Translations under genes and position numbers: made by a program
The notes under the pieces: model-generated
Seen by the model: only the letters and a program-made list of their open reading frames with translations
Told to the model about the DNA's origin: nothing
The model's database searches: none
Part shown: positions 38,860 to 46,185 of the stretch, piece by piece
How positions within the stretch are numbered: the first letter of the stretch is position 1
Layout of the letters: each line of letters opens with the position of its first letter
Assembly (NCBI GenBank): GCA_963705255.1
Contig: OY970061.1
Coordinates: 2,016,001 to 2,080,000 of the forward strand
DNA length: 64,000 nucleotides
Origin: an uncultured Methanoregulaceae archaeon
Lineage (GTDB): Archaea > Halobacteriota > Methanomicrobia > Methanomicrobiales > Methanospirillaceae
Reading direction: 5' to 3'

Positions 38860-39189
38860 ATGCCGGACGTGACAAAGACCGAGATCGGGAGAAGAATGTA
38901 CCAGCTCCACAAGGAAAAGAGCGTGGAGAAGATCATTGAGAAGATACGTGATAATATCGGACATGACTGGAAGTCATTCACCGGGGACGAGATCCACCTG
39001 CTGGAGCGGCTCCTGAGTGCAGCATGGGCAAACATCGAACAGTCAAACTGGGACAAAATACCGTTTTCCCGGATGTCAAAGGATGATGTCCGGCGGGTAC
39101 TCGATGTCGGGAAATACACTGATCTTGATAAAACACCGCAGCATGCTTTGGTGGCGGAGGTGGAAAAGGTCCTGCTCTCGGTAAAATGA
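38860..39189 (+). CDS. Hypothetical helical protein, paralog of 38349..38684
   Basis: Same shared motif pattern; purine-rich RBS upstream. Confidence 0.8.
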   Translation: MPDVTKTEIGRRMYQLHKEKSVEKIIEKIRDNIGHDWKSFTGDEIHLLERLLSAAWANIEQSNWDKIPFSRMSKDDVRRVLDVGKYTDLDKTPQHALVAEVEKVLLSVK

Positions 39190-39480
39190 TCCTCTTTTTT
39201 CCATATATCATGCTGCCGGGAGATTTTTCAGAATTCCCGGTGAAACGGGAGTGCCGGTCCTCTGCTGCATTCAGCCAATCTCAAACCGGTCGATCACGCT
39301 CTGGGTCTCTGCTGCCGCCCTCTTCAGTTCCTCAATCCGGTCCGCGACCGTCTCCTCATGATGTTTCCGCTTTGCAGGAGCCGGGTTGATCGCGCCATGG
39401 GGTGCCCCGATGGTGCCATGGTCTTCTCACTCCAGACCCGTCCGGCCACCGCACCAGCACCGCCGGGACGACAATCAAAT

Positions 39481-39765
39481 TCGAAGGGTGATTGATGTCA
39501 CCCTTCTCATCCTCGAATTTCGCTTTGCTCAATTCTTCGGAGATCGAAGAATTCTCGCGAATTCGGTCGAAGAACTTCGTTCAGGAGAAGATTCTTCTCC
39601 TGTCTCAAGTCCGATGACTTTCGACAAGAGGGATTTTTCAAATCCCTCTGCTTCATCCTTAAGGGATGAAGCATTCTGATGACCCTCAGCATTCTCCTCC
39701 TCCAGGTCGGAGAGGTTTATCAAAACCTCGATGAGGAGAAGGGAGGTGTAAGCCGACCTTCGACT
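39481..39765. repeat. Tandem-GA hairpin repeat, cluster B (left island boundary)
   Basis: Many hairpins; 39560-39583 equals revcomp 44831-44854 (23/24); 39675-39696 equals revcomp 44745-44766 (21/22). Confidence 0.85.
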
Positions 39766-39768
39766 TTC

Positions 39769-39981
39769 TTATGGACCTATCGGACGTCGGAGAAACCTGA
39801 TGGTTTCTTCTTTTCCTTCAGGTCTGATGACCTGTCGGACAAAAAAAACGACCGGCATGTACGCCGAACCCCTGAACACGACCAGCACAATGTCCAGCAC
39901 CATCCCGAGGGCCAGCCCTGCAGCGATGCCGACGATGAGGCGCCTGATCGTGCGGTCTTCGAAAATGGTGGAGTCCGTCAT
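39769..39981 (-). CDS. Small membrane protein
   Basis: One or two hydrophobic segments, purine-rich RBS; stop abuts repeat cluster B. Confidence 0.5.
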   Translation of the reverse strand: MTDSTIFEDRTIRRLIVGIAAGLALGMVLDIVLVVFRGSAYMPVVFFVRQVIRPEGKEETIRFLRRPIGP

Positions 39982-40101
39982 GGTTATTTCCTTACTTATC
40001 TTGCGTCATGCTGGTTCTAGAAATTTTTTGCGGGGTTCAGCTTTGTTATTTCCATCACATCCAGGCACCGGACGGTGCCAGTGCACGGGTCATCATGCAT
40101 C

Positions 40102-40335
40102 TCAGCCGTCCCCGCTCCCGAACACGTCCGGGAAATATTCCCGGACCCGGCGGCGTTCCCGCTCGTTTAGCTCGCGGAGTTCCGGGCCGGCGAGCCCTAT
40201 GATGAATGCCGCCGCATCATCGCGGCACCTGAATATGCGGATCACCGGCCCGTCTCCCGCCGCGATCTGGTACCGGAGGTGAAAACAGGTCTCCTTTGCG
40301 GGCACCGGGCGGGCGCGGGAGTATTGTGCTGCCAT
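40102..40335 (-). CDS. Small hypothetical protein
   Basis: 77-aa ORF divergent from the XRE gene. Confidence 0.5.
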   Translation of the reverse strand: MAAQYSRARPVPAKETCFHLRYQIAAGDGPVIRIFRCRDDAAAFIIGLAGPELRELNERERRRVREYFPDVFGSGDG

Positions 40336-40511
40336 TATCCCGTATACCGGTGACTGGTGAGGTTTTCCCGGAACGACAGGGTACCACGTTCAGACCAAGC
40401 ATCTATAGCCGGGGGTGTCCGATCGGGATTTTCTTTGGGGTCCGGGGTTTGACGAATTTGATTCACCAGGCACCAAGGAATGTGTTGGCGGGCGGGGAGG
40501 ATAAATTTGTC

Positions 40512-40521
40512 GACTATAGTC
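40512..40521. promoter_or_regulatory. Palindrome GACTATAGTC, candidate operator of the XRE regulator
   Basis: Perfect 10-bp palindrome ~45 bp upstream of the XRE gene; resembles GACT-n-AGTC boxes of R-M controller proteins. Confidence 0.45.
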
Positions 40522-40568
40522 TGCGATAGGCATTAGCCTATTTTCAACTGAATCTCATTTGAGTGAAA

Positions 40569-40832
40569 ATGCACGAGGAAGAAATTTTTGGCAAGATGCT
40601 GCAGGAAGAGCGGAAAGCCAAAAAAATTTCCCAGGAGAAACTTGCAAAACTCGCCGGCCTCGACCGGACCTTCATCAGCCTCATCGAGAACGGAAAACGG
40701 AGCCCGACATTTTCTACTATTTTGAAGATCTGTTCAGTTCTCGAGATCGCTCCTTCTGAACTATTCTCGATTTACGAGAAGAAGGATCCGGATTACAGGG
40801 CGAAAAAAGGTGGGAAGCGTGAGAGGTTTTGA
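40569..40832 (+). CDS. XRE-family HTH regulator (R-M controller-like)
   Basis: FGKMLQEERKAKKISQEKLAKLAGLDRTFISLIENGKRSPT. Confidence 0.92.
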   Translation: MHEEEIFGKMLQEERKAKKISQEKLAKLAGLDRTFISLIENGKRSPTFSTILKICSVLEIAPSELFSIYEKKDPDYRAKKGGKRERF

Positions 40833-40983
40833 CGCTCAATGGGGCTGGTCCGGCACCATTCACGATATTCTCCGATTGAATAAACCGCACTGGCTCGCAT
40901 CCATGAATGTAGCAGAACCTCTTTAATAAAAAATGCAACCATTTATCGTTTTCAGATAATAAAAGAGAAGCAGTGAGCCTGTC

Positions 40984-41430
40984 GTGAAGATATACCTGGA
41001 CGTATGCTGCCTCTGCCGGCCTTTCGATAACCATCATGAGACCAGGATACGGTTGGAGACGGAGGCAATTCTTACGATCCTGAAACGCTGTTCCCTCGAT
41101 TGGGAACTGGTCACGAGTACCGCAGTGCTGTACGAGGTTGGCCTCATCGGGGATCCGGTAAGAAGATCCCATGTCATGAGGCTGACGAGTCGCGCCCGAA
41201 AGACGATAACTGTTGATGAAGCCCTGTTGTTGCGGGCAGAAGAGATCGAAAAGGATGGAATCATGGGAATGGATGCCATTCATATTGCGTGTGCTGAGAG
41301 AGCCGGTGCGGTGTTCCTGACAACGGATGACGAGGTGATAAGGATTATGAAGAAGCATACCCCAGATATATCCATACGGGTCGATAACCCGCTGCGCTGG
41401 CTGATGGAGTTGAACCATGACGGAGAGTAA
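40984..41430 (+). CDS. PIN-domain (VapC-like) toxin
   Basis: IYLDVC..RPFD, DAIHIACAE, FLTTDD, NPL.W. Confidence 0.92.
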   Translation: MKIYLDVCCLCRPFDNHHETRIRLETEAILTILKRCSLDWELVTSTAVLYEVGLIGDPVRRSHVMRLTSRARKTITVDEALLLRAEEIEKDGIMGMDAIHIACAERAGAVFLTTDDEVIRIMKKHTPDISIRVDNPLRWLMELNHDGE

Positions 41431-41623
41431 GACCATTGCCCAGATCCAGAGTGAAGGGTACGATGCCCTGGTAAATGCTCTTGGACCGGAGGATGCCGTC
41501 CGGTTTATCCGGAGTTTCGATCCCGGGAGTGGCGATTATACAAAAGAGCGGAAGAAAACGTTTAAGAAAAAGACGGCAAAGCAGATCGGGAAAGAGATCC
41601 TTGAGCTGCAGAAGACGATCTGA
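41417..41623 (+). CDS. Putative antitoxin partner of the PIN toxin
   Basis: Overlaps the toxin 3' end; G..AL...LG...A.RFI..F..G.GDYT.ER pattern. Confidence 0.8.
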   Translation: MTESKTIAQIQSEGYDALVNALGPEDAVRFIRSFDPGSGDYTKERKKTFKKKTAKQIGKEILELQKTI

Positions 41624-41706
41624 CTCTATTTTCACTTCTCTATCGTGTCGATCTCCGCAATGAACTCCATCAGCCGTTCGAGTTCCGGCCCGGACCATCG
41701 TTGTTT

Positions 41707-41805
41707 TTACTCCATCCCGTTCGACCACCGCACTAGTACCGCCAGGACCACGATGAGCACGAAGTCGAAGACTAGGATTACCAAACTAATTCCGGATACT
41801 TTCAT
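41707..41805 (-). CDS. 32-aa single-TM peptide MKVSGISLVILVFDFVLIVVLAVLVRWSNGME
   Basis: Translated by hand (below the ORF-track cutoff); lies just downstream of the left arm of a palindromic promoter region. Confidence 0.45.
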   Translation of the reverse strand: MKVSGISLVILVFDFVLIVVLAVLVRWSNGME

Positions 41806-41820
41806 AGTATACCGGTAAGC

Positions 41821-41924
41821 GGATTTCGGTATCCTCCACTTAACGTTTCTAACGCGATCGTCTACCGGTCAGGGGTCCGGTAGAGAGTTGCGTTAGAATC
41901 GTTATATATCGCGTAACGAAATCC
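41821..41924. promoter_or_regulatory. ~100-bp imperfect palindrome / divergent promoter pair
   Basis: TCTACCGG/CCGGTAGA, TTCTAACGC/GCGTTAGAA and GGATTTCG/CGAAATCC arms; TTATATAT at 41902-41909. Confidence 0.65.
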
Positions 41925-41930
41925 CCATTC

Positions 41931-42260
41931 GTGGACAGCCGGGGGTTGTCCCGAAAAGAAATGATGGGTTCACCAGGCGACGAACTTCGTTGAACCCGGT
42001 CCGCCCGCAGGCATGTGATCATTATCGTACATTCTTATGAGGATTTTCCCGTGCCCGGGTTGACAGCAAGGGAAGTGATAGCATAGACTCCACATACGGA
42101 AAGCAGAACAAAATGGCGGTATCCGGCAGGATACCGTCCTGGTTAACGAAGGAGAGCGGCCACTTACACCTTACCGGGGATGTACTCCGGGGGCAGGGAT
42201 TCCCGGCAGGGGTATCCGGTCAGCCTGCAGGAAAAAACCGGAAGCGGAGGCGGGCACAGG
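41931..42260 (+). ncRNA. Candidate structured RNA or long 5' leader
   Basis: Starts ~22 nt after the TATA-like box; hairpins GGACAGCC/GGTTGTCC, GGGTTCA..TGAACCC, GGTATCC/GGATACC; no convincing ORF. Confidence 0.35.
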
Positions 42261-42530
42261 ATGCCGAAGAGTAAATCCGTGACTGAAGGCGGTATTCCGC
42301 TCTATCTCCTGCCTCAGGCAATCGCACGGCAGATCACCAGGATCGGCAACTCAGTGTACCGCATCAGCGTGAAACGGACGCACTGGCATTATTACAACAT
42401 ATCCGTCAGGACAAAATCCCTGCCAAAGGAGCTTGCCCCGGCACGGGTTATCCAACGTGCTTCCCCGCAGGAGAGGGAACCGGACAATCATTATCCTGTC
42501 ATCCAGGAGGATAAACGGTGTACGGTATGA
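42261..42530 (+). CDS. Small basic hypothetical protein
   Basis: GGAGG upstream of MPKSKS; stop overlaps the next start (ATGA). Confidence 0.65.
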   Translation: MPKSKSVTEGGIPLYLLPQAIARQITRIGNSVYRISVKRTHWHYYNISVRTKSLPKELAPARVIQRASPQEREPDNHYPVIQEDKRCTV

Positions 42531-42916
42531 GCCGGGGACCACACCCGGGAAGGACGCTCGCCGTTGCCATCCCGATCGCAGAAATGCGGGGGACTGTCCA
42601 TATCGTCCGGCAGGCCCGCGGGAGCCTGTATGATTTCGTGATCTCGACTGCGGTCCCGGTCGCGTTTGTCCGCGTGAAGTATACGGACTGGATTCTCATG
42701 ACGCTCCCGGAGGCAGAAGCATACTACCGTGATGTGATCAATGGCCTCCGTGCCATTGCATCAACAGAGAATGTTTCGCGTGAACTCTGGCTGCGTTCCC
42801 GGCATGGGACCTGGCGGTTCTTCCGGGTTGGCGAGAACGGTCCCGTTGAGCTCTCACGGAACGGCATGGTATTCAATACACCCGGTAAGGAAAAAGTCAA
42901 ATCTCGTCAGGTATAG
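42527..42916 (+). CDS. Hypothetical protein, possible degenerate PD-(D/E)XK nuclease fold
   Basis: YDFVI-x7-FVRVK resembles the Hjc-type D-x-EVK motif with E replaced by R; RELW....G.WRFFRV. Confidence 0.55.
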   Translation: MSRGPHPGRTLAVAIPIAEMRGTVHIVRQARGSLYDFVISTAVPVAFVRVKYTDWILMTLPEAEAYYRDVINGLRAIASTENVSRELWLRSRHGTWRFFRVGENGPVELSRNGMVFNTPGKEKVKSRQV

Positions 42917-43371
42917 GGAAGTGAGGAAGAAGGGATCTCCCCTCTTTTACCTCTCTTCTGATGGGGGGGATCCTGATCCTCTTTTGGGGGCACCTCCCAA
43001 ATCTCCCCTATACGGGCTCCGATTGGCCATTTTTCCGGATCCAGAGGAGGTATTTCGTCAAAATGAGACATTATTTCGCTAAGATTTGCTCATTTTCACG
43101 TCAGTAATCCAGAGACGCTATTTGGGTGTATTTGGAAGGCGAAAAACAGCTTGGATCGGCCTTCAGGCCAGGAGCGCCGGGAGGATGGTTAATGGGGCTT
43201 TTCAATTACGATCCCATTTTTGCGAAACCCTCCGGCAGATTTCCTGCCACGGATTATCTCCAAATGCCAGCAAAACCCTCCGTTTTGCCCTCTGAAAATT
43301 TATTCAGCCAAGCCCATCTGCTCATAAAACCCATACTGATATGTCCAAAGGAGTTCTGCAGAACCCCGTGG

Positions 43372-43513
43372 ACGAGAAGAATGACGAAGTCATTCTTCAC
43401 TGTCAAAGGGGCCCTGGAGACACCAAAAGAAAACGAGGTTCGGTGAACCTTCGAGAGGTCGAAGAAATGTTTCACATTTCTTCTCCTCTTCGAGGTTCGA
43501 ATCGAACCTCTCA
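43372..43513. repeat. Tandem-GA hairpin repeat, cluster C, in the leader of the 43538 gene
   Basis: Minus strand 43512-43459: GA-GAGGTTCGA-t-TCGAACCTC-GA-agag-GA-GAAGAAATGT-gaa-ACATTTCTTC-GA. Confidence 0.85.
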
Positions 43514-43537
43514 GAAACAAAAGGAGGAACCAAAAAC

Positions 43538-44041
43538 ATGGCAGATTTCGTACAGAAAACAACCGTAAAGACAGCGGTTCGCATCCTCGCGAACCCGATA
43601 GCAGACGCAGCGGCGTTCAACACGATCGTCCAGTCGGTCATCACGACCAACCCGTTTGCATGCACAGCCTATGAGACCGCCGGCGTCAGCCACCAGCCGG
43701 TAGAGAAGACCAAGGAGTCCTACGTGGCGAAGATCGTGTACCAGGATTCCGACGCGAAGACCGTCGGGACCGACTCCGGCAGGTTCAGCTCCATCGCCGG
43801 GTTCAATGCCGGCGCCACGGCACTCCTCGGGAATGCAGCCCTCACCGCAGCCCACGGGGGCACCCCGGCCCGGGACACGGCACACGAGACCTACTCGGCA
43901 ACCCTGAAGTGTCACGACGCGAACGGGGAGATCTACATGGTCACATTCGGCCGGCAGAGTGTGAGCCTCACCTCGTACTCGGACGATGCGATCCGGACCA
44001 AGGTCGATACCTGGGCCGACTCGGTGGGGGCCCTGGCATAA
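43538..44041 (+). CDS. Uncharacterised 167-aa Ala/Thr-rich protein (MADFVQK...)
   Basis: Strong AGGAGG RBS, biased codon use, downstream hairpin. Confidence 0.85.
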   Translation: MADFVQKTTVKTAVRILANPIADAAAFNTIVQSVITTNPFACTAYETAGVSHQPVEKTKESYVAKIVYQDSDAKTVGTDSGRFSSIAGFNAGATALLGNAALTAAHGGTPARDTAHETYSATLKCHDANGEIYMVTFGRQSVSLTSYSDDAIRTKVDTWADSVGALA

Positions 44042-44064
44042 CGTGTTCTGGGCGTGAAGTCGCC

Positions 44065-44094
44065 AAAGGGGGTGACCAGCGGTCACCTCCCTTT
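44065..44094 (+). terminator. Hairpin after the 43538 gene
   Basis: AAAGGG-GGTGACC-agc-GGTCACC-t-CCCTTT. Confidence 0.55.
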
Positions 44095-44127
44095 CTGGCC
44101 CGTCCATCCTATCACGGAGGCAAAACC

Positions 44128-44292
44128 ATGGAAACTGAAATTCTGGGATTGCTGCTCGGGGCCGTCCTCCCGCTCTATCCCCTGCTGTTCGCCATCTACC
44201 AGAAGACCGGCAGGTATGACGAGATCGTCGAGGAGTTCAAAAGACTCCGGGACGAGCACGAGCATTACCGGGAGGCGCATCATGGGGGATGA
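44128..44292 (+). CDS. 54-aa protein, one TM plus charged coiled tail (holin-like architecture)
   Basis: GGAGG RBS; METEILGLLLGAVLPLYPLLFAIYQK...FKRLRDEHE. Confidence 0.7.
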   Translation: METEILGLLLGAVLPLYPLLFAIYQKTGRYDEIVEEFKRLRDEHEHYREAHHGG

Positions 44293-44746
44293 GATCGCAC
44301 CGGTCGCAACCGTGACCGGCCTGTACCGGGGCACCTTCAGCGGCCTCGAACCGCTCACGAAGGACACCCCGCTCACGCTCGACGAGGTTCGGCGCAACCC
44401 GGTTTTCTACGAGCTGGAACTGCACCCGGAGCAAGAGAAGGCGAACCTGATCATCGATGTGATCTATGACAACATGTCGCCGCTGCGGCTGCAGGACCTG
44501 ATGCGGGGAACGGATCTCCCGCGGGGCGTCCGGTTCTGGCCGGACTGGTTCGAGATCCCGCCCTACCGGGAGATGCGCGATATTGACGGCCGCAGGGTCT
44601 ACCCGCGCTCGCCGGGCATCCACACGGTCCGTATCCGGACCGCGAAGCGGAAACTGGGAAATGTCCGGGACTTCAGCCCGGCAAACGGCGGGTACACGAG
44701 TCCGGTGTTTGAGATTACCATAGTCGCGGACAGGAACAACGTTTGA
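44282..44746 (+). CDS. Uncharacterised 154-aa protein
   Basis: GGAGG RBS, overlaps the previous gene, stop abuts repeat cluster D. Confidence 0.8.
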   Translation: MGDEIAPVATVTGLYRGTFSGLEPLTKDTPLTLDEVRRNPVFYELELHPEQEKANLIIDVIYDNMSPLRLQDLMRGTDLPRGVRFWPDWFEIPPYREMRDIDGRRVYPRSPGIHTVRIRTAKRKLGNVRDFSPANGGYTSPVFEITIVADRNNV

Positions 44747-44895
44747 GAATGTTGAGGGTCATCAGACCCGAAACAGGAGAATGTCGAGAGTCATCAGATT
44801 TGAGACATGAGAAGACCGAAGGTCTTCGAATGAACGAAGTTCTTCGACTGAATTGAAAGTCATCACATCCGGGCAACCCTCTTCAGGAGGGAGGA
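44745..44895. repeat. Tandem-GA hairpin repeat, cluster D (right island boundary)
   Basis: GA-GGGTC-atca-GACCC-GA; TGTC-GA-GAGTC-atca-GATTT-GA-GACA; GA-GAAGACC-gaa-GGTCTTC-GA; inverted homolog of cluster B. Confidence 0.85.
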
Positions 44896-45021
44896 CGATG
44901 TTTGAGAACGAGCTGCAGGCCCCGGCCGCCGTCTGCGGTTCCAGGCTCCTGCCCGGGATTATTTTTTTCACCTGCCGCTCCGCGATGACTGGTTCGGGAC
45001 TTTGACGGGATCAAACCCACC

Positions 45022-46185
45022 CTACTCCGTCGCCACCTTCACGCACTCCTCGATCGTCCCGATCCGGGCCACCGCAGCACACATGTCCGGGACGTACGCG
45101 AGCGCCTTGCCGCTGTTCACCATGATCGCCTCGTACTGCTCCATGACCGGTGAGACCACCATGCAGGTGTCCGCAAAGACCCGGGCCCCGCTCTTCTCGA
45201 TAGAGTCGGCAACCCGCTGGCTGGCCTCGATGACGCCCTGCGCAGCAAAGACGTAGAGCGGCATCGTGACCAGTTTTCCCTTCAGGAGCCGGGCGATCTC
45301 TTCCAGTTCTTCAGGGGAGCAGTGGGGGCACCCGACCGCGACCGCATCGACCGGGATCTCTTTGAACAGGTGCCGGATCTCACCGGATTCCACGGCGATA
45401 GTCTCAAGGCCGGTGAGATCGAAGGGCACCTTCACCGCCTCGGGCGTGATGCCCTCCACATGGTAGAGCGCCACGGCCCCGGTCGCCGCCATCGCCGCCC
45501 CGAGGGCCTTGAGCTGGTCGCGGTCCGGGTTTATCCCTGAGAAGAACGGGATGCGATTGCCTGCCAGTTTTCCCGCATGGTAGCCAAGCGCCCCGAAATG
45601 TGCGATGGACCAGTCACGGGTATCGGCCTGCACCCGGATGACCAGCTGCGGCTTCCGGTTTTTTGCAAGGTGAAGGCCGTAGCAGGGGGTCTTCCCGACC
45701 AGTGCGGCGGCAAGGGCGCCGGGGCCCCCTTCCCGGTTCGTCCGGGCACCGATGACCGAGTTCGCGTAGCTGACCGCGGACGACTCCGACCATGCGAGGT
45801 GGTCGCCAAAGCTCGTCTCGTGCAGGTAGTAGGGCGTGCAGGTGCATTCGAGGCCGATGCCGAGCCGCTCGTAGGCAGCGACCACGGCCTGCTGCTTCTG
45901 CGCAAAGTCCTCGTCCACGCCCATCTCCTGCCAGCGCCCGCGGGGCATCCCTATCGGGTTCAGCACGGCCGGGACCACGGCTTTTGCGTCGAGCGAGTTG
46001 AGCCACTGGAGGCCGTACTCGCCGATCGTCTTGTAGGACGCGCCGCTCACCTGTGCGCTCCGGATCCTGACCAGCCGTTCCGCACCGAAGACCTTCCCCA
46101 GCGCGACGAGGAGCTCCAGCATCCTCTGCCGGGTCTCGCCCTCTTCTCCGGCAAGGACCCGTTCGTCCTCAGGTTCGAGCTGCAT
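45022..46185 (-). CDS. Aconitase X large subunit (probable phosphomevalonate dehydratase)
   Basis: QVSGASYKTIG, CTCTPY, WSESSAVSYANSVIGARTNREGGP, GCPHCS, DTCMVV, NSGK; clustered with ubiD/ubiX. Confidence 0.92.
   Translation of the reverse strand: MQLEPEDERVLAGEEGETRQRMLELLVALGKVFGAERLVRIRSAQVSGASYKTIGEYGLQWLNSLDAKAVVPAVLNPIGMPRGRWQEMGVDEDFAQKQQAVVAAYERLGIGLECTCTPYYLHETSFGDHLAWSESSAVSYANSVIGARTNREGGPGALAAALVGKTPCYGLHLAKNRKPQLVIRVQADTRDWSIAHFGALGYHAGKLAGNRIPFFSGINPDRDQLKALGAAMAATGAVALYHVEGITPEAVKVPFDLTGLETIAVESGEIRHLFKEIPVDAVAVGCPHCSPEELEEIARLLKGKLVTMPLYVFAAQGVIEASQRVADSIEKSGARVFADTCMVVSPVMEQYEAIMVNSGKALAYVPDMCAAVARIGTIEECVKVATE

Follow-up and report, generated by a model that had tools for sequence, protein, structure and literature searches.

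ATPases of the ORC/Cdc6 clade are recurrent parts of anti-invader systems, among them BREX (BrxC/BrxD) and the DUF499 systems, according to a published account (PMC12839542). The subject of this report is a module of three small genes, p167, p54 and p154, in a stretch of 64,000 nt from an uncultured Methanoregulaceae archaeon (NCBI GenBank assembly GCA_963705255.1, contig OY970061.1, positions 2,016,001 to 2,080,000 of the forward strand). This whole stretch is referred to as the window, the 2.6-Mb genome that carries it as G000, and other sampled loci and genomes by L- and G-numbers. Relatives of p167 in other taxonomic families resemble these systems in that they adjoin Orc1/Cdc6-like ATPases, BrxB-like genes, methylases and nucleases. 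The p167-linked ATPases differ in being ordinary Orc1/Cdc6 proteins of about 375-400 amino acids (aa) with a Cdc6 lid (one also has a Cdc6_C winged helix) rather than BrxC-like giants; no PADLOC system matches beyond the P-loop level; and the window module itself is without an Orc1/Cdc6-like ATPase. An earlier note on this DNA had described the three genes as a virus-like module, in which an abundant p167 might form particles or filaments and bind or package a hairpin-forming nucleic acid.

To our knowledge, methanogen-specific protein families have seldom been characterised, and the ways in which Methanomicrobiales cope with viruses and plasmids are barely understood. Text searches of the literature returned nothing on the p167 family, a sequence family that cannot be found by words. 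For a family annotated as "hypothetical", the present analysis provides confident structural models, a three-gene operon of fixed order, one promoter-proximal motif common to several copies, and an unexpectedly tight link to Orc1/Cdc6; together they single the family out for experiments on a possible new accessory system, either associated with the membrane or linked to replication.

The three genes lie on the plus strand. The first, p167 (43538-44041), encodes a soluble, mildly acidic alpha+beta protein of 167 aa. The second, p54 (44128-44292, with its ATG at 44128), encodes a predicted single-pass membrane peptide of 54 aa with a charged cytoplasmic tail. The third, p154 (44282-44746), shares its first 11 nt with the end of p54 and encodes a protein of 154 aa, predicted to be a cytoplasmic immunoglobulin-like (Ig-like) beta-sandwich and found, among the sampled genomes, in this genus only. 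As read from the sequence, each gene has a GGAGG ribosome-binding site, which ends 10 nt 5' of the ATG in p167 (43523-43527), 7 nt in p54 (44116-44120) and 6 nt in p154. All three products are mildly acidic, with isoelectric points (pI) of 5.73, 5.41 and 6.14, respectively. Searches of Pfam, PHROG, NCBIfam and PADLOC yielded no meaningful family match for any of them.

A profile search with p154 found 17 loci in nine genomes, all from the window's genus (G000 and eight of the nine other genomes sampled from it), and no match in the other 29 of the 30 genera sampled. At every one of the 17 loci the genes stand in the order p167-p54-p154 on one strand, and the three-gene module of the earlier note is borne out. 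The small peptide was likewise described correctly: both the sequence and the hydropathy of p54 indicate that a hydrophobic helix at the N-terminus precedes a charged tail. It is present at all 17 module loci, and also in L052, and 13 of its 54 columns are invariant among 18 sequences, the charged tail being conserved too; p154 has 38 invariant columns among 34 sequences. Together the three genes make up a single conserved operon of the chromosome, and nothing marks them as a virion module. Within G000, the 2.9-kb window segment 41880-44746 has a duplicate at 2467529-2470970, which is 96.7% identical over 2221 nt and then 92.0% identical over 573 nt. The p167 paralogs of G000 are labelled A (the window copy), B (this near-identical twin), C, D, E and F. 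The leader of copy B has one hairpin unit (about 56 nt) more than that of the window copy, and its p167-p54 spacer measures 624 nt and is filled with dispersed repeats (versus 86 nt in the window).

The p167 protein is a stand-alone soluble protein and a member of a multicopy family confined to Methanomicrobiales, the order in which the earlier note had placed multiple paralogs. Six full-length copies occur in G000; the five others are 99, 65, 56, 52 and 42% identical to the window copy, the one at 65% has a frameshifted C-terminus, and fragments of p167 are also present. Whole-genome searches found the family in 101 of the 121 genomes and 26 of the 30 genera of the order, with 1 to 11 matches per genome, many of them interrupted by stops or frameshifts. 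The family is missing from the other 20 genomes, 10 of which are among the 104 with a completeness of at least 90%. A phylum-wide sample gave matches in G000 and in 25 of the 27 genomes that represent the order; the 173 genomes drawn from the phylum's 20 other families had none. At E <= 0.001 the protein database contains 1305 p167 clusters (clustered at 90% identity), and a profile search of 1.84 billion representatives gave 561 matches, many of them fragmentary. Named entries among the 120 clusters listed read "hypothetical protein" (in NCBI and nr the name also gives Methanoregula sp. or Methanomicrobiales archaeon as the organism), except for one JGI "ABC-type transporter permease subunit".

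Identity is 74-92% among the best 120 of the 1305 database clusters, and 45-60% between the window p167 and sampled loci outside the genus. Fused forms were not found among proteins of 294-2000 aa; the longer database members examined look like frameshifts or mis-called starts, with the exception of P0145, which has an N-terminal membrane stretch. Among 40 diverse members P39 alone is invariant, while F4, R15, G77, G107, R139, Y147, W159, A160, D161 and L166 are nearly so. The two cysteines of p167 vary in this set, and nothing in it resembles an active site.

The structural model of p167 (predicted local distance difference test, pLDDT, 93.9) consists of a strand, a helix, four strands, two helices, four strands and a final helix. 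Foldseek searches of the PDB and BFVD gave no match to a capsid, tail-tube or coat fold: the best hits in the PDB were CYTH/TTM enzymes (E 1.1e-2, template-modelling (TM) score 0.29), and those in BFVD (best E 1.6e-2, TM 0.15-0.30) belonged to no consistent family. In the wide VIA-align search, the top matches of p167 reached Z 5.6-7.4, below the guide value of 8 under which a match can reflect a merely common arrangement, with root-mean-square deviations (rmsd) of 2.1-3.6 A over 65-94 residues in most rows. They include KA1, Aha1/AHSA1, Bet v 1-like, phosphoglucomutase C-terminal, AMPK regulatory, Med18/20 and adaptin appendage structures as well as a TBP / yeast pre-initiation complex chain, and no capsid or tube entry is present in the 50 rows. 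Most of these matches belong to what we take to be the TBP-like alpha+beta fold class (KA1, SRPBCC, phosphoglucomutase C-terminal domain, Med18/20, TBP). The order of secondary structures in p167 fits the strand-helix-four-strand-helix pattern of this class, from which p167 differs in matching none of its sequence families, in having every Z below 8, and in being a stand-alone protein with both termini conserved. Because the Z values are below 8, the claim is limited to a fold that is suggestive of a common binding-type alpha+beta arrangement.

The model of p154 (pLDDT 88.7) is a nine-strand sandwich. Foldseek assigns it a probability of 1.00 for both the Wzt binding domain and RoxP (TM 0.45-0.51), and VIA-align gives Z values up to 7.5 (rmsd 4.0 A over 117 residues), with 50 rows, most of which are sandwich domains of the Ig-like, Fn3, PKD or carbohydrate-binding kind. 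The predicted fold of p154 is that of an Ig-like/carbohydrate-binding beta-sandwich, a statement about fold class that implies no family. This prediction also bears on the comparison of p54 with holins and other small single-pass peptides, which p54 resembles in its 54 aa, its single N-terminal hydrophobic helix and its charged C-terminal tail. In contrast to holins, p54 matches no Pfam, PHROG or NCBIfam family at default level, and it has a chromosomal, non-phage context in which it is fixed in a conserved cellular operon. Since the adjacent p154 models as an Ig-like sandwich and matches no enzyme family, there is no lytic enzyme beside p54 and no lysis cassette.

A terminator-like or attenuating hairpin (44065-44094, plus strand) separates p167 from p54. 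Taken alone it is not significant (z -1.98; 11 of 200 shuffles fold as well). However, wherever the p167-p54 spacer is 67-96 nt long (11 of the 17 loci), a hairpin occupies this position. Its stem sequence differs from locus to locus, and a run of at least five T follows directly in six of these 11. Because the hairpin is conserved with changing stems and is often followed by a T-run, it supports the suggestion, already made in the earlier note, that p167 would be produced in larger amounts than p54 and p154. Agreement with codon use is weak. In similarity to 18 ribosomal, Mcr and EF genes, p167 reaches the 96.7th percentile and p154 the 98.2nd, as compared with the 41st and 20th for the neighbouring helix-turn-helix (HTH) and PIN genes; the index, however, tracks GC content at third codon positions (GC3) almost exactly (r = 0.92). 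A self-consistent codon index was dropped as a measure of expression (its top 20 genes include UvrA, PyrI/PyrB, tRNA synthetases and gyrase). The dominant trend of codon usage in G000 is not tied to expression, the top 20 being repair, tRNA-synthetase and nucleotide-synthesis genes.

Small hydrophobic open reading frames (ORFs) are common partners of p167 beyond the operon. One lies directly 3' of p167 at 16 of 40 sampled loci, and these ORFs fall into four sequence types, represented 8, 5 (the p54 type), 2 and 1 times; the G000 paralogs C and D are also followed by an ORF of the first type. The genomic settings of p167 copies include defence islands. Copy B lies at the edge of an island of about 45 kb (G000 2424001-2472000, L106-L108) that contains PIN/PIN_2, HicB, an RNase III-like gene, QueC, TGT, a BrxC/D-like ATPase, HerA with DUF6884, Schlafen/AlbA_2, DUF3800 and a YhcG PDDEXK nuclease; QueC, TGT and the BrxC/D-like ATPase presumably form a set like those for 7-deazaguanine DNA modification.

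Outside the window's taxonomic family, the p167 family is strongly linked to extra Orc1/Cdc6 paralogs in defence islands. An Orc1/Cdc6-like AAA+ gene (Cdc6_lid, AAA_16, AAA_22) adjoins p167 at 10 of the 40 loci (L028, L031, L032, L035, L036, L040, L041, L042, L045 and L055), in a neighbour scan that covered 143 of the 235 ORFs of at least 90 aa at these loci. A whole-genome check was made in four genomes from three other taxonomic families, with a cut-off of 4.5 kb between a full-length p167 and a Cdc6_lid match. Such pairing was found for two of four copies in G032, four of five in G044, both copies in G094 and all four in G118, that is, for 12 of 15 copies in the four genomes together, where well under one pairing is expected by chance. 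In no case is the p167-linked Cdc6 the top-scoring Cdc6 of its genome, which is presumably the canonical one. The pair occupies a shared block of 2.1-2.3 kb with 72-91% nucleotide identity within and between genomes; in two taxonomic families its genes are oriented divergently, and in a third they run in the same direction or overlap. Neighbours of the pair include BrxB, DNA methylases, a BfiI-type enzyme, an OLD-type nuclease, UvrD-PDDEXK, NYN, EVE, MNT/HepT, Schlafen/AlbA_2, ArdC-like, DUF2080 and transposase genes. A D5_N primase-helicase lies near p167 in L023.

The leader of p167 (43330-43545) is as rich in hairpins as the earlier note had stated. It folds at -85.8 kcal/mol versus -54.55 +/- 4.43 for shuffled sequences (z -7.05; none of 200 as good), and a strict test (9-bp stem, at most one mismatch) recovers two GAAGA...TCTTC hairpins, at 43376-43398 and 43461-43483, in addition to smaller ones. 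Along the plus strand, a promoter-like A/T-rich element (43295-43304) is followed by a truncated first copy of a promoter-proximal motif (43341-43353), an insert of about 47 nt that bears the first GA hairpin (43354-43400), and the full conserved motif TGTCAAAGGG..CC...GAC of about 21 nt (43401-43421). Both the A/T-rich element and the motif also occur 5' of the p167 homologs in L058, L060, L063 and L069. Between the motif and the ribosome-binding site lie the leader hairpins of a composite stack (43434-43510), which consists of a small hairpin, the second GA hairpin and another small hairpin. Two copies of a motif stretch of about 10 nt (43341-43353 and 43401-43410), noticed by eye, flank the 43354-43400 piece, which looks like an insertion with target duplication. 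Of 60 p167 homologs, 18 have the motif core GTCAAAGG 45-250 nt before the ATG, and all 18 belong to the window's taxonomic family. G000 contains five full motifs: paralogs A, B, C and D each have one upstream, and the fifth precedes a paralog of the neighbouring gene o132.

The GAAGA...TCTTC hairpins themselves are a genome-wide dispersed palindromic repeat resembling repetitive extragenic palindromic (REP) elements. The seed has 344 matches on both strands of G000 versus five in a shuffled genome, a rate about 10-20 times that of 10 of 11 control 5-mers; the remaining one, AGAAG, which overlaps the seed, gives a similar score. In the window, 14 matches represent eight hairpins, because palindromic units mostly match once per strand. 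The 250 nt 5' of 60 p167 homologs contain between 0 and 4 perfect 8-bp hairpins, at least two at four of the 60 loci; the mean is 0.52, as compared with 0.12 in all 250-nt windows of these loci, coding sequence included. The number of GA hairpins differs even between the near-identical copies A and B. In common with REP elements and miniature inverted-repeat transposable elements (MITEs), the leader hairpins are short dispersed palindromes, mostly with 4-nt loops, whose units are gained or lost between recent duplicates and in one case possibly accompanied by a target duplication; they differ in reaching no Rfam family threshold (three weak matches in 39000-45200, all far below gathering scores). 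We infer that they are passengers and not a signal specific to the module, at most stabilising the mRNA, because the repeat is genome-wide and variable in number and because the motif, not the hairpin, is conserved upstream. This removes the hairpins as a false lead: a repeat with at least two hairpins at only four of 60 loci, beside proteins of pI 5.4-6.1, lends no support to nucleic-acid packaging. The GAAGA...TCTTC hairpins often have a CTGATGA-like tip and alternate in tandem with small GGTTC...GAACC hairpins, and the hairpin-densest bins of G000 are at about 0.62, 1.20 and 2.56 Mb.

The explanation of the module that we prefer, and hold tentatively, is a soluble binding subunit made in excess and accompanied by a membrane-anchored pair of peptide and Ig-like protein, with an accessory and probably conflict-related role. 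In this scheme p167 would be produced in excess as a binding or scaffold subunit, since its putative fold class is typical of ligand, protein and nucleic-acid binders and no catalytic-looking residues are kept. The p54 peptide would be embedded in the membrane, its charged tail facing the cytoplasm, and would hold p154, to which it would be coupled in translation, so that the three proteins might act together at the inner membrane face. They would serve an accessory purpose, most probably during stress or in conflicts with invading elements, because copies A and B lie among toxin-antitoxin and defence genes and relatives in other taxonomic families pair with extra Orc1/Cdc6-like ATPases in defence islands. 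Several points weigh against this explanation. The conservation of p167 (74-92% in the best clusters, 45-60% outside the genus) is more like that of a housekeeping gene than of a fast-evolving defence gene, and no PADLOC model matches p167, p54 or p154. All structural matches have Z below 8, so that the fold class is no more than suggestive. In G000, paralogs C-F lie outside recognisable defence contexts (NikR, nitroreductase and GNAT acetyltransferase genes are nearby), and none of the six p167 copies is near a Cdc6-like gene, Cdc6_lid occurring only at 1973481 and 2501284.

Other explanations account for parts of the same evidence. An abortive-infection or toxin-antitoxin-like cassette, in which p54-type peptides would be membrane-damaging effectors, p167 an abundant sensor or antidote and p154 an adaptor, is unlikely in our estimate, even though it would suit the single-pass peptide genes found 3' of p167 at 16 of 40 loci and in all 17 modules, the toxin-antitoxin and defence islands around copies A and B and, elsewhere, around the Cdc6-linked copies, and a copy number of 1 to 11 with many fragments broken by stops or frameshifts. 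A toxic p54 sits poorly with its strong conservation, tail included (13 of 54 columns invariant), and with its co-directional position beside the supposed antidote; moreover, 24 of the 40 p167 loci are without a downstream peptide, and p167 evolves slowly and has no PADLOC match. Alternatively, p167 could be an ordinary abundant cytoplasmic protein (a ligand carrier, or a stress or chaperone-like protein) with co-regulated paralogs, the islands and peptides being incidental. The order-wide presence and good conservation of the family, the native-like codon use of p167, the one promoter-proximal motif common to four paralogs, the unremarkable contexts of paralogs C-F and a fold class common among small-molecule and protein binders all speak for such a protein. 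We nevertheless consider it rather improbable, given an order of p167-p54-p154 kept at 17 of 17 loci, a link to Orc1/Cdc6 for 12 of 15 copies in four genomes that is far above chance, and the 20 of 121 genomes of the order that do without the family (10 of them among the 104 at least 90% complete).

The Orc1/Cdc6 link could also mean that p167 was an accessory gene of integrated plasmid-like elements with an Orc1/Cdc6 of their own (a copy-control or origin factor), later detached and re-used in the window's genus. The recurrence of the 2.1-2.3-kb p167/Cdc6-like unit in several places at 72-91% nucleotide identity, the orientation of the pair (divergent in two families, co-directional or overlapping in another), and the ArdC-like, DUF2080, transposase and D5_N primase-helicase genes nearby are in keeping with this origin. 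To this possibility we give little credence: the scanned regions contain no integrase or att-like boundary, 72,556 plasmid records contain no p167 relative, a pI of 5.73 is unusual for an origin-binding factor, and no copy in G000 (0 of 6) is paired with Cdc6. The minimal viral-type particle or filament module of the earlier note, with a major protein that binds or packages hairpin nucleic acid, is very improbable. Its attractions were a layout in which one gene is apparently expressed above two partners, the presence of a small membrane peptide, and a multicopy family whose conserved N- and C-termini could mediate self-association. Against these stand the lack of any capsid, coat or tube fold among the structural matches, the acidity of the proteins, and hairpins that are spread over the genome and absent from the leaders of most homologs. 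Nor is there any sign of viral kin: no PHROG family at E <= 0.1 and no Pfam family corresponds to p167, tblastn found no relative in 50,697 phage records, 50 pattern matches in IMG/VR included none confirmed as a relative, and the ORFs scanned in the window island (HTH, PIN, otherwise no family) contain no virus hallmark gene. Returning to a soluble binding subunit with a membrane-anchored pair, a broader version can be framed in which p167 is the common subunit of unrecognised conflict systems of Methanomicrobiales, a soluble sensor or decoy that works either with an extra Orc1/Cdc6-like ATPase, in other taxonomic families, or with a membrane peptide and an Ig-like adaptor, in the window's genus, all copies in a cell being placed under one regulator by the shared motif; this version is speculative, and we regard it as unlikely.

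The module is housed in a 6.7-kb stretch of small genes, with an A-type ATP synthase operon (subunits E, C, A and B recognised) on one flank and an AcnX gene on the opposite flank. The island in the window also carries the HTH gene (40563-40832) and the PIN gene (40984-41430). Two overlapping small basic ORFs, o116 (42180-42530) and o132 (42518-42916), accompany the module on the plus strand and lie within the segment that is duplicated at G000 2467529-2470970. In at least three genomes the pair stands 5' of the p167 module; L020 and L048 carry both ORFs there, whereas L062 has only o116. About 12 paralogs of o132 occur in G000, and the one at 2596025 bears the p167-type promoter-proximal motif. 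Neither o116 nor o132 matches a Pfam, PHROG, NCBIfam or PADLOC family; PADLOC-DB 2.0 at E <= 0.01 returned no family for these two or for p167, p54 and p154. Pairs of the o116/o132 type occur elsewhere in G000 at 2456722-2457422, 1757870-1758567 and 2595678-2596025.

An array of dispersed hairpin-repeat units (44745-44860, plus strand), with 26 matches across G000, closes the module and is an inverted match to 39560-39700. The arrays at 39560-39700 and 44745-44855, in opposite orientation, bracket 5.2 kb that extend from a small membrane gene through the HTH and PIN genes to p154. The idea that they are the terminal inverted repeats of one 5.2-kb mobile element was set aside, because the array units occur at 26 places genome-wide. 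Their position may be a chance placement of a genome-wide repeat, or they may mark the edges of a movable cassette. The small membrane-protein ORF (39769-39981, minus strand) encodes 70 aa; the island at G000 2427913-2433511 contains four further stretches of DNA that cover this ORF wholly or partly, with nucleotide identities of 89-96%. A mostly non-coding segment at 41753-42450, which contains a 48-nt inverted repeat (41821-41924), is possibly a small mobile or RNA-coding element. It recurs with 82-92% identity at G000 1757426, 2456356, 2462635 and 2467529, and pieces of it are found at 327602, 330611, 337446, 2451812, 2454553 and 2459633.

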